DNA of 64,000 nt from a virus (IMGVR_UViG_2721755676_000001), one strand, 5' to 3'. Positions 20,053 through 23,729 are shown, numbered from the stretch's first letter. Made by a program: numbers and translations. The notes: generated by a model not told the origin, from the letters alone.

Positions 20053-20922
20053 ATGAACTTTACCAAACTGACTGACCACCTGAAACTTGCCACCGATCGA
20101 CTCATTGGATTTAAGCCAGAACCATATGAATTGCATGAAGGCCATGGTGTAGCCACTGAAAGTATTTACAAGATGGTCGATCAGTTTCATGAACTCTTCC
20201 AGCATCCGAGACGCGTTATGCCGACACCAGAGCTGCTTCGTCTCCGTGCAAGCCTGATTCATGAAGAAGCTGTAGTGGAAGGTATTCCAGCCGCAATGAA
20301 TGGGGATATTGAGCAACTGCTGGATGCAATGGCCGACTTTTTATACGTTGGTGTTGGTACGATGGTCGCCATCAAAGGTGGTATTTCTACCGGCATGACT
20401 TATTACACGCAGGAACAGAGCATTGATCGCTTTATGCAGACAATTTTTGTGCCTGGTAACACTGTTTTCGATGATATGGCAATGCCATTTCAGGAAGCTC
20501 GTGAGGCGTCATGTATGCTCGAAGAGCTGGCAGATAAACTTGAGAAGAAGACTGTTAAGGATTCTGAGCTGATTCAGGAACTGCGCCGTGTAATGAACAA
20601 AATCTATGTGGCGTGCATGATGACTTATCGACTGGCTGATTTTCTCGGTATCAATGTCGTCGAGCTGGTTGGCGAAATTCATCGGTCCAACATGACAAAA
20701 TTATGGCCTGCAGATGCCGAAGAGCGTCGCCATGCTGTGGCCAACTGCAAATACGACTCTTCTGACCTGGGATTTCGCCATGCTGATGGCACCGATAAGA
20801 TGATCGGTTTTCGAATTTCCGATGGAAAGATTCTGAAGTCTCCAACCTATAGTGATGTCGATTTATCCTCCTTTGTTGAGCAAGCTAAAGCCTCAGCAAT
20901 GTACGGAATGATCAAAAAATAA
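20053..20922 (+). CDS. Hypothetical protein, possibly MazG-like all-alpha NTP pyrophosphohydrolase
   Basis: EExxxE (HEEAVVE) followed by ExLLDAMADFLYV resembles the MazG/HisE metal-binding pattern; weak. Confidence 0.4.
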   Translation: MNFTKLTDHLKLATDRLIGFKPEPYELHEGHGVATESIYKMVDQFHELFQHPRRVMPTPELLRLRASLIHEEAVVEGIPAAMNGDIEQLLDAMADFLYVGVGTMVAIKGGISTGMTYYTQEQSIDRFMQTIFVPGNTVFDDMAMPFQEAREASCMLEELADKLEKKTVKDSELIQELRRVMNKIYVACMMTYRLADFLGINVVELVGEIHRSNMTKLWPADAEERRHAVANCKYDSSDLGFRHADGTDKMIGFRISDGKILKSPTYSDVDLSSFVEQAKASAMYGMIKK

Positions 20923-21066
20923 TTGTAGGTAGTTATCTATCTGTGTATATTGCGCTGGCGCGTTAAATTTCTGAAACAACTATTCGTTTTTGGTGGCCTA
21001 TGGCCACCATTTTTTTATCTATCTGGCCTTGTTCCCTCAATAAATGTAAACTCACTTAATGAATAA

Positions 21067-22197
21067 GTGGTTACTTATCTTTGTGAGGTTTTTGTGTCAC
21101 TCCTTTTGAATCGTGAGCATACGAACGGTCAGGTAACAAACGCATCGTATGCAAAAGTTATTGAGACGGTGCTTAAAAGCGGCGTGCAGGCTGATGATCG
21201 CACAGGCACTGGTACTTTAAGCACCTGCTACGTTCCCTCTTACTACATGCTTACTGGTGGGACTGTGCCGCTTATTTCTGGAAAGGCGGTAAATCTTAAG
21301 CCACTGCTTGTCGAACTTGAGTGGTATCTGAAAGGCACGGGCAACATCCAATTTCTCAAGGATAACGGCGTTAAGATTTGGGATGCATGGGCCGATGAGA
21401 ATGGCGATTTGGGGCCGGTTTACGGTAAGCAGTGGCGTCGATGGGAAGATACCCGCATCGTGAGCCATAGTGAATATCTGAGCAAGATCGCTACTTTCCG
21501 TGAACGCGGGTACAAAGTCGAGGGATACCTGGGTATCAGTGAAGATCGCGTAGTGCTGTCCCGTGAAATCGATCAGCTACAGCGTATTGTCGATACACTG
21601 CGCACGAACCCTACCGATCGTCGCATCATGCTTAACGCATGGAACGTAGGCGAGCTTGAGGATATGAAACTGCCACCTTGCCACTTTGTCTTCTCTTTGT
21701 GGAGTCGTGAACTGGATTTTGAAACCCGTTTAACGATGGCAACTGACATTGGTCTTCAACACAGTCGCCTCGGTTATGAGTCTATCTACACCAAGATGCT
21801 ATACGATCTGGAGATGGACGGCAGTGTTACTGAAACTGAACTGGATGAACTTGGAATCCCCAAACGCATCCTCAACTCCTGCCTCGTACAGCGTAGCGTA
21901 GACACTTTTGTTGGTATGCCATTCAATATTGCTGGCTATGGCATTCTCACTCATTTTCTCGCGAAGATTACGGGTCACATGGCCGGTGCATTTGTGCATT
22001 TTGGCTTTGACGTGCATTTGTACAACAACCACATGGAAGGTGTGTGTGAGCTAATGCAACGACAGGCTCCAGAGCATTCAGATCCGGTCGTTATATTCCC
22101 TAATGAATGGTCTGAGCTGGATGATTTCAAATGGGACGAGATTCTTATTCTTGGCTATGCCCCTCTACCGTGGATCAAGGTTCCAGTGGCGGTGTGA
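21067..22197 (+). CDS. thyA: Thymidylate synthase with two internal insertions; true start may be downstream (GTG 21094 or TTG 21112)
   Basis: DRTGTGTLS, ELEWYLKG, IWDAWADENGDLGPVYGKQWRRW, LPPCH, VQRSVD, MPFNIAGY, C-terminal YAPLPWIKVPVAV collinear with E. coli ThyA. Confidence 0.9.
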   Translation: MVTYLCEVFVSLLLNREHTNGQVTNASYAKVIETVLKSGVQADDRTGTGTLSTCYVPSYYMLTGGTVPLISGKAVNLKPLLVELEWYLKGTGNIQFLKDNGVKIWDAWADENGDLGPVYGKQWRRWEDTRIVSHSEYLSKIATFRERGYKVEGYLGISEDRVVLSREIDQLQRIVDTLRTNPTDRRIMLNAWNVGELEDMKLPPCHFVFSLWSRELDFETRLTMATDIGLQHSRLGYESIYTKMLYDLEMDGSVTETELDELGIPKRILNSCLVQRSVDTFVGMPFNIAGYGILTHFLAKITGHMAGAFVHFGFDVHLYNNHMEGVCELMQRQAPEHSDPVVIFPNEWSELDDFKWDEILILGYAPLPWIKVPVAV

Positions 22198-22198
22198 T

Positions 22199-22612
22199 AT
22201 GGCAAGAGGTGTGTATGTCTTATGCGAAATTGAAGGTGTGCTGGCAAATACCAGCCATCGTAAATCTGTATCTGACTCGGATGCAGGCCAATTCATTGCC
22301 GGTGATGAACTCATTTTCCCCACCAGCCGTATGTTGCGTGGTTTTGCTCGCTCAGGGGCTGAAGTGGTGCTTATCAGTAGCCGCTCTGAAACTCTTGAAG
22401 CGCCAACTAAACGATGGCTGAAAGATTTTGGCGTTGATTATGACTGGCTTCATCTCGTACCGAATGGCACCAGTTATGAGAAGCATATTAAGCGCACATT
22501 AGCGGAGCATAAAGGCGATCTGCTTATCGCTGCGCTGGTGCACGATCCTCGACTCCGTGCCGCTTTAGCCGACTCTCACCATCGACCGGTCATCTATGAG
22601 GTGAGCAAATGA
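22199..22612 (+). CDS. Hypothetical protein (138 aa from MARGVYVL); possible HAD-like fold
   Basis: Sits between thyA and DHFR; N-terminal VYVLCEIEGVLAN resembles HAD motif I but with Glu in place of Asp. Confidence 0.4.
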   Translation: MARGVYVLCEIEGVLANTSHRKSVSDSDAGQFIAGDELIFPTSRMLRGFARSGAEVVLISSRSETLEAPTKRWLKDFGVDYDWLHLVPNGTSYEKHIKRTLAEHKGDLLIAALVHDPRLRAALADSHHRPVIYEVSK

Positions 22613-23085
22613 AGATGATCGCTGCTGTTGGCCGTAACTATGAGATCGGCATAGCGAATGAACTCCCCTGGCGTTGTTCTACCGATCTGAAGCTATTTAA
22701 GAGACTCACCAAAAACGCCACTGTCGTTATGGGGCGTAAAACGATGGAAAGTCTCAAACGCCCTCTTCCAGAGCGTCATAACCTCGTTTTGACGCGCTCT
22801 CATGGCTTTGTACCAAATGGATTCTACCCTGCTGGTGTGGATGATGTGTTGCGATTACCAGAGCCTGTGTGGGTGATTGGCGGGGAACAAATTTACTCGC
22901 TATTCATGCCGCATGTTGAAGAGATTTGGCTCTCCCACATCGGCATTGATGTACCAAACGCCGATGCATTCTTCCCGGCAAGCATGATGCGTAACTTAGG
23001 CTTTGTGCCTGTTGAAACAGCTTATACCCAACGAGCCAGCGAGGAAGAGCCTGGCTTTTCGCAGATCGTATACAGAAGGTCGTAA
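22609..23085 (+). CDS. folA: Dihydrofolate reductase
   Basis: MIAAVGRNYEIG...LPW...VVMGRKT...PLPERHNLVLTRS matches DHFR signature. Confidence 0.9.
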   Translation: MKMIAAVGRNYEIGIANELPWRCSTDLKLFKRLTKNATVVMGRKTMESLKRPLPERHNLVLTRSHGFVPNGFYPAGVDDVLRLPEPVWVIGGEQIYSLFMPHVEEIWLSHIGIDVPNADAFFPASMMRNLGFVPVETAYTQRASEEEPGFSQIVYRRS

Positions 23086-23729
23086 TGGATTACCGGATTG
23101 GGATCACTGGTGCTCAGGGCAGTGGGAAAACAACCCTGGCTAAATATATCGACAAACATTACGGAATCCCTTACGTGGATGCTGGTGTCGGAAGTTTGAT
23201 GAGCCGCCTCGGTGTTCGAGTAGGTGATTCTATGCCTCTATATGAGCGGCTTCAGATTCAAATGGAAATAGCAAAGCATATAGAGCTACTTACGCGTGGT
23301 GTTGAAGGCTTTGTTATCGATCGCACACCTGCTGATGTTATGGCCTACACGTTGGATTTGGTCGGCCATACAAATGAAGATCGGTGTATTGAGTTAGCCC
23401 TCGATATCGAAAAGTTTTGCCACAAAACTGCTATTTCAAACTTTAACGCCATTGCTGGCTTACGCCCGGGAGTCGCTCTCTCAGAGCGAGATTACTTGCG
23501 ATCACAACGAGCATCATTAGACCGTCTGTATGTCGCTCGTATTGATGCGTTGATGTGCGGGGAACTGACAAAAATTCACCTGCATCCGCAAAGGGGAGAT
23601 CTGCAAACCTTCGTCGTTTCCAACCGATATCGCACGGTTGAAGCAAGAGCCAGATCAGTGATGAGAATGCTAGATAACGCTGTAGAAAAGATAGAAAACC
23701 GGTTCTGTGGCCGAGTGACCGTTCATTAG
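23085..23729 (+). CDS. P-loop NTPase, probable nucleotide/nucleoside kinase
   Basis: Walker A GITGAQGSGKTT at N-terminus. Confidence 0.55.
   Translation: MDYRIGITGAQGSGKTTLAKYIDKHYGIPYVDAGVGSLMSRLGVRVGDSMPLYERLQIQMEIAKHIELLTRGVEGFVIDRTPADVMAYTLDLVGHTNEDRCIELALDIEKFCHKTAISNFNAIAGLRPGVALSERDYLRSQRASLDRLYVARIDALMCGELTKIHLHPQRGDLQTFVVSNRYRTVEARARSVMRMLDNAVEKIENRFCGRVTVH

Follow-up and report, generated by a model that had tools for sequence, protein, structure and literature searches.

ThyA-type thymidylate synthases are obligate homodimers in which the active sites are shared between the subunits. The E. coli enzyme (264 aa; PDB 2TSC, 1TYS and 1AOB) has the same fold as the protein described here and shares 43.6% identity with its core; it is, however, 103 aa shorter, with a 4-residue loop and a tight turn (VADGKL) at the two sites where our protein carries what we call insert 1 and insert 2. 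The Lactobacillus casei-type enzyme (316-318 aa) has an insertion of about 50 aa inside the small domain, whereas the corresponding segment of our protein (E. coli residues 70-94) keeps the E. coli length of 24 residues, and the protein scores well below the cutoff of the L. casei-type model NF002496 (210 against 325 bits). Human thymidylate synthase has a eukaryote-specific insertion of about 8 aa at the insert 1 loop, following WRHFG, but this insertion is far shorter than insert 1 and not homologous to it, and nothing is inserted at the hairpin turn. Eukaryotic enzymes further have a 12-aa insert in the small domain and an N-terminal extension.

Among phage enzymes, the T4-type Td (286 aa), the classic example with inserts, which have been proposed to serve in forming the dNTP-synthetase complex, resembles our protein in being of the ThyA type, in carrying extra surface segments and in its linkage to dihydrofolate reductase (DHFR) and ribonucleotide reductase genes. 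Alignment with the td product of phage ime09 places these segments in the small domain (after E. coli residues ~70 and ~85) and before the C-terminus; this Td lacks both insert 1 and insert 2, whereas our protein has the E. coli length at the T4 sites, and the inserts of the two enzymes are therefore not homologous. Other counterparts are found in jumbo phages. Gp67 of the Erwinia jumbo phage Desertfox (383 aa) has the frame of insert 2 (TDEILAEERL...LDEAGVPKYYL) at the same hairpin. Insert 1 is absent from it, however, and further large inserts occur within its small domain and ahead of the PCH motif. The best structural match is the BFVD model A0A1C3NFC4 (query-normalised TM 0.87), and the protein of Pseudomonas phage 201phi2-1 (457 aa; BFVD B3FJL1) reaches 0.83. 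These three jumbo-phage proteins are only 22-29% identical to ours and are themselves uncharacterised predictions. A literature search on the thymidylate synthase of SSU5 and pHCM2, and on inserts in phage thymidylate synthases, found nothing on the inserts described here, nor any enzymatic or structural experiment on this protein or its close relatives.

Identity, reading frame and start of the gene

The window, which is the whole 64,000-nucleotide stretch of viral DNA that was analysed (IMGVR_UViG_2721755676_000001), contains at 21067..22197 on the + strand an unbroken open reading frame of 376 codons, counted from the longest possible GTG and free of frameshifts. Its product matches the Pfam family PF00303 (E 2.8e-78; 263 bits against a cutoff of 24.3) and the PHROG family phrog_160 (E 1.8e-94), and with 219 bits it exceeds the cutoff of the NCBIfam equivalog model TIGR03284, which is 108. 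With its match split by the inserts, the protein stays below the cutoffs of the narrower NF0024xx equivalog models. As a gene, thyA is ordinary and already correctly annotated as thymidylate synthase.

The start codon is probably GTG 21094 and not GTG 21067. A Shine-Dalgarno-like GAGG can be read at 21085..21088 (+), 5 nt upstream of GTG 21094, and inspection of the sequence before GTG 21067 revealed no Shine-Dalgarno sequence. A start codon is kept at the downstream position, as TTG in SSU5 and ATG in PhiR41_1, and the annotated relatives are all 367 aa long, beginning 9 codons later than the longest frame. Together, these observations indicate that the in-frame upstream extension (21067..21093, +), comprising the first 9 codons of the open reading frame, is probably untranslated, which leaves a coding sequence at 21094..22197 (+) with a GTG start, a TGA stop and 367 codons for amino acids.

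Position and size of the two inserts

A phmmer comparison with the E. coli ThyA sequence in the PDB aligned in three blocks, in which residues 27-127, 166-212 and 270-376 of the 376-codon frame correspond to E. coli residues 3-102, 107-153 and 160-264, respectively. In a MAFFT alignment of 117 sequences, the segment from E. coli residue 98 to 112 comprises 48 residues in our protein against 14 (net +34), and that from residue 150 to 164 comprises 65 against 14 (net +51). Insert 1 (38 aa, DTRIVSHSEYLSKIATFRERGYKVEGYLGISEDRVVLS; 21448..21561, +; residues 119-156 of the 367-aa form) stands in for the 4-residue loop of E. coli residues 103-106, between the YGKQWRxW motif (YGKQWRRW in our protein) and helix G. 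Insert 2 (57 aa, SRELDFETRLTMATDIGLQHSRLGYESIYTKMLYDLEMDGSVTETELDELGIPKRIL; 21703..21873, +; residues 204-260 of the 367-aa form) stands in for the hairpin turn of E. coli residues 154-159, between the strand bearing C146 (PCH) and the strand bearing R166 (QRS). Both inserts start and end outside the catalytic motifs.

An earlier note on this DNA had described the gene as a thymidylate synthase with two in-frame inserts, and the three-block alignment, the open frame and the matches to PF00303 and TIGR03284 bear this out. The note had also placed the inserts correctly, although its sizes of about 30 and 47 aa were slightly low compared with the net gains of 34 and 51 residues.

Catalytic residues and predicted chemistry

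All 26 catalytic and ligand-binding positions that we compared with E. coli ThyA are conserved, in agreement with the claim of the earlier note that every catalytic motif is retained. R21, K48, E58, I79, W80, W83, Y94, R126, R127, L143, C146, H147, Q165, R166, S167, D169, G173, F176, N177, H207 and Y209 (E. coli numbering) are identical, and the substitutions are Val for L172 and Val for the C-terminal I264, so that the chain ends in PVAV. The catalytic cysteine of the PCH motif, equivalent to E. coli C146, is C196 of the 367-aa form (codon at 21679..21681, +). Together with this cysteine, the dUMP-binding set (R21, R126', R127', R166, S167, N177, H207 and Y209) is invariant or nearly so among the 115-116 relatives that have a residue at these positions; it includes the two arginines that the partner subunit supplies in ThyA homodimers, both of which are present in our protein, and Asn177, which sets the specificity for uracil. 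The residues of the folate site and of hydride transfer (K48, E58, I79, W80, W83, Y94, D169 and F176) and the closing C-terminal tail are likewise all present.

From these residues we infer a normal conversion of dUMP to dTMP, with the dihydrofolate recycled by the adjoining DHFR. Cys196 would attack dUMP, methylene-tetrahydrofolate would give the carbon and the hydride, and the adjoining DHFR would regenerate the folate from dihydrofolate, while the inserts would leave substrate and reaction type unchanged. DHFR is the enzyme that recycles the dihydrofolate made by thymidylate synthase, and its linkage matters here because no reaction other than that of thymidylate synthase is known to convert tetrahydrofolate to dihydrofolate.

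Phage homologues of thymidylate synthase with other chemistries do exist, and it is conceivable that the inserts remodel the active site so that the enzyme acts as a dUMP or dCMP hydroxymethylase serving DNA base modification; some of the BFVD matches are in fact labelled 'thymidylate synthase/dCMP hydroxymethylase', although with low TM only, and the T4-type gp42 model in BFVD reaches a query-normalised TM of only 0.44. The dCMP and dUMP hydroxymethylases have lost the closing C-terminal tail and the hydride-transfer environment, and the dCMP enzymes have Asp in place of Asn177. Our protein, in contrast, retains Asn177, W80, W83, Y94, H147, D169 and the PVAV tail, passes the TIGR03284 equivalog cutoff, has a linked DHFR, which is needed only where dihydrofolate arises, and bears both inserts outside the catalytic motifs. 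We therefore regard an altered chemistry as highly improbable. The gene probably encodes a functional ThyA (EC 2.1.1.45) with standard chemistry that belongs to an SSU5-like nucleotide-supply module, and its inserts would be rigid elaborations anchored on the core.

Predicted structure of the inserts

An AlphaFold2 model of the full-length protein, built on an alignment of 86 sequences, has a pLDDT of 95 and a pTM of 0.93, and the mean pLDDT in blocks of 10 residues is at least 90 across both inserts. Insert 1 comprises in this model the strands 117-124, 141-146 and 152-159 and the helices 125-130 and 132-137, and it is thus predicted to be an alpha/beta mini-module consisting of a three-stranded meander and two short helices. 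Insert 2 is modelled as three helices (209-225, 231-242 and 247-253). When predicted alone it gives a pLDDT of 96 and a pTM of 0.78 and has its two ends paired, which is what a module inserted into a hairpin should show; by these predictions, insert 2 is an independently folding three-helix module at the hairpin tip. For a structure prediction, which the earlier note had suggested as a way to see whether the inserts form a surface module, both thus come out as ordered surface modules. The high pTM of the full-length model implies no more than a fixed packing of the inserts.

In a Foldseek search, E. coli ThyA was matched with E 2.7e-31 and a TM of 0.94 when normalised to the target, but 0.68 when normalised to the query. 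Across the thymidylate synthases of the PDB the query-normalised TM is 0.68-0.71, none exceeding 0.71, because none has the two modules, whereas viral models of BFVD reach 0.83-0.87. Neither insert is covered by any solved thymidylate synthase structure.

Selection, conservation and spread

Compared with SSU5, pN is 0.034 for insert 1, 0.118 for insert 2 and 0.060 for the core, whereas pS is near saturation (range 0.57-0.86; 0.57 for insert 1 and 0.86 for insert 2). A low pN set against a nearly saturated pS shows that both inserts are under purifying selection, with insert 1 at least as constrained as the core. Conservation extends to individual residues: among the 57 sequences with both inserts, D119, R138, G139, Y140 and G144 are conserved in insert 1, D119 and G139 being near-invariant, and R212 (98%), D251, P256, R258 and L260 are near-invariant in insert 2. 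The earlier note had named an alignment artefact or a frameshift as the findings that would speak against its reading; with a continuous frame and with conserved, selected residues in the inserts, neither was found.

Among the best 120 database relatives, both inserts are present in every SSU5-type sequence and also in many far more distant proteins, whose cores are 43-50% identical and no nearer to ours than are bacterial enzymes without inserts. The distant insert-bearers have motifs in common with our protein, DTR[IV]V ... RGY..G in insert 1 and [ST]RELxxxER..A ... LDxxG[IV]PxRxL in insert 2; the length of the central part of insert 2 ranges from about 21 to 80 aa, and the motifs at its base are conserved. 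A few relatives have insert 1 alone or insert 2 alone, and the two inserts therefore need not work together. In the contexts that we sampled, the inserts occur only in phages or phage-plasmids, and the three distant insert-bearers whose contigs were inspected all lie in jumbo-phage-like contigs with no adjacent DHFR. In a neighbour-joining tree of the core columns, the SSU5-like clade is monophyletic and has both inserts, and sequences without inserts nest among insert-bearers, the tree resolving that clade but not the deeper branches. Core positions that co-vary with insert presence, sought as a clue to what the inserts pack against, gave a signal dominated by alignment-boundary positions and by clade membership.

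Three thymidylate synthase copies in public assemblies (our relatives P0019, P0121 and P0122) are frameshifted or truncated, reflecting assembly errors or pseudogenes. One of them, P0019, is a 505-aa relative that at first sight has a third insertion; the extra length comes instead from a frameshift fusion with the downstream gene, the HAD-like frame being joined after residue 267.

Origin of the inserts

Group I introns and homing endonucleases are well known from the thymidylate synthase genes of phages, and split td genes are present in some of the phage records that we compared (H31 and H36). One could accordingly regard the inserts as remnants of mobile elements, such as a degenerate in-frame intron, a mini-intein or a homing-endonuclease fragment. 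The region 20500-22700 gave no Rfam match to an intron or other RNA element at E values up to 1, though, the reading frame is continuous, and GC content is 0.47-0.53 throughout thyA, with no compositional shift at the inserts. At 38 and 57 aa the inserts are far below the length of an intein, and searches of the insert segments against Pfam and PHROG matched no family. Strong purifying selection, a confidently predicted fold and motifs kept across very divergent phages argue in the same direction, and we consider the chance that the inserts are such remnants to be negligible.

A known domain borrowed from another protein family was also considered as the source of insert 2 and rejected, as no counterpart was found in Pfam, PHROG, the PDB or by Foldseek. 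A profile of insert 2 retrieved nothing among PDB sequences (best E 0.96), and a Foldseek search with the isolated insert 2 model gave a best E of only 3.6. Among 1.84 billion representative sequences the profile had five matches, of which four are thymidylate synthases or fragments thereof. The fifth is an unrelated repeat protein of 581 aa (P0123) with six tandem repeats of F.LLT.[DE]QRF.YAMKMA.KG; with a summed E of 8e-5, their weak similarity to helix 1 of insert 2 is probably due to chance. In tblastn searches of phages, insert 2 was found in SSU5-like elements only. Apparently, the inserts are an ancient, lineage-specific and uncharacterised structural variant, associated with phages, of a well-known enzyme family.

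Genomic setting

The window is an SSU5-like phage-plasmid, of a kind common in E. coli. At the nucleotide level thyA is 99.9% identical to that of Escherichia phage CMS-2020a, 98.6-98.7% identical to those of PhiR41_1 and Cyrano and 77.6% identical to that of Salmonella phage SSU5, and the gene order around it matches that of SSU5-type elements (PhiR41_1 and SSU5). The gene is present in 371 PLSDB plasmids, 364 of which are non-mobilizable, with sizes of about 105-115 kb among the plasmids listed, and it is found in 229 of 5426 complete E. coli genomes (~4%), where it is almost always plasmid-borne and annotated as 'thymidylate synthase'. In the record of Escherichia phage Cyrano (OV696614.1, 72607-73733), the ortholog is labelled 'ThyX'; as it is of the ThyA type (PF00303), this is an annotation error.

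The module reads, in order, NrdA, NrdB, a PRA-PH/MazG-like pyrophosphohydrolase, ThyA, a HAD-like protein, DHFR, a P-loop kinase-like protein and a DnaQ-type exonuclease, and the order is the same in a relative from Photobacterium, although its enzyme shares no more than 51% identity with ours. In Photobacterium ganghwense CP071326.1 (802763-819824; locus L007), an SSU5-type nucleotide-metabolism module is found in full within a replicon of 2.03 Mb and not on a plasmid of about 110 kb, which suggests an integrated SSU5-like element in Vibrionaceae.

Upstream of thyA, the MazG-like gene (20053-20922, +; 289 aa) matches the PRA-PH/MazG-type family over residues 42-106 only (E 1.3e-8), and its C-terminal ~180 aa are without assignment; its product may supply thymidylate synthase with dUMP from dUTP or dCTP. 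Between this gene and thyA lies a strong hairpin resembling an intrinsic terminator, with a T-run (20991..21018, +; hairpin at 20991-21009); its 8-bp stem includes 6 GC pairs and is followed by TTTTTTT. Its presence implies a transcription unit of their own for thyA and the HAD-like and DHFR genes. The HAD-like frame (22199..22612, +; 137 aa) begins 1 nt past the thyA stop, and its own stop overlaps the DHFR start (ATGA). It resembles PF25109 (PNKP phosphatase) with E 8.6e-5, which is below the cutoff; the Photobacterium relative has the same arrangement of thyA, HAD-like and DHFR genes, and a phosphatase in a module for dTMP synthesis is puzzling.

The DHFR gene itself (22609..23085, +) matches PF00186 with E 2.4e-34 and is annotated as DHFR in PhiR41_1 and SSU5. 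Directly 3' of it, a 214-aa P-loop protein (23085-23729, +) matches AAA_28 (E 1.4e-9) and, weakly, several kinase families; it is kept in the Photobacterium relative and is a candidate nucleotide kinase, although not so annotated in phage records. SSU5-derived plasmids have been described as encoding a DHFR that confers no resistance to trimethoprim, and folA of phages is often in tandem with thyA (PMC7725336).

Role of the inserts

The compactness of this neighbourhood bears on the proposal of the earlier note that the inserts may mediate protein-protein interaction, in other words that they could be docking surfaces for a phage nucleotide-synthesis complex involving DHFR, ribonucleotide reductase, the HAD-like protein or the kinase. 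thyA is packed with the NrdAB, DHFR, HAD-like and kinase-like genes, with junctions of 1 nt or overlapping; the inserts are predicted to be ordered surface modules, they were seen in phage and phage-plasmid contexts only among those sampled, and insert 2 of our protein is acidic (net charge -6). That charge, however, ranges from -11 to +4 across insert-bearers and is not conserved; conservation is greatest at the bases near the core and not on the distal surface; and the insert-bearers of jumbo phages keep the base motifs without adjacent DHFR, HAD-like or kinase-like genes. Nor did we find support for the analogy with the T4 dNTP-synthetase complex in its stated form, as the T4-type Td of ime09 carries its extra segments at other sites and offers no homology. 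Docking would thus appear unlikely, while still deserving serious attention.

A rigid structural elaboration is the most likely role of the inserts, given where their conserved residues fall. The conserved parts are the bases, which continue the strands of the hairpins and adjoin the core, whereas insert 2, further out, differs in length and charge from one sequence to another; both features favour a structural role. As the same bases are kept in phages with different neighbouring genes, the enzyme itself is the single partner that all of these phages share. The inserts may accordingly be imagined as anchored, through the base motifs DTR...RGY..G and SRELxxxER...LDxxGIPxRxL, on the core of the enzyme and on the edge of its dimer-interface sheet, with variable distal surfaces that would be under little restraint to change and might come to serve in contacts. 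The strand directly after insert 2 corresponds to the interface strand LSCQLYQR of other thymidylate synthases, which makes it plausible that the inserts buttress the dimer-interface sheet.

A more far-reaching reading, which we find doubtful, is that the inserts define a phage-specific structural class in which the three-helix module on the interface hairpin and the alpha/beta module jointly create a new function, with the near-invariant R212, D251 and R258 as its site. Such a function might be an allosteric or partner-binding site that would couple dTMP synthesis to the replication or nucleotide machinery of the phage; it might also consist in a different oligomeric state, or in shielding the enzyme from a host factor directed against it.

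Few enzymes have been studied as intensively as thymidylate synthase, yet neither insert is represented in a solved structure, even though the two are found in many large phages and in an element present in ~4% of complete E. coli genomes. Should they do no more than buttress the fold, they would be a footnote to the structural diversity of the enzyme. Should they form a partner-binding or regulatory surface instead, they would offer a handle on how the supply of dTMP is organised in phages and phage-plasmids, and they would set a feature specific to phages on a drug target that is otherwise strongly conserved.
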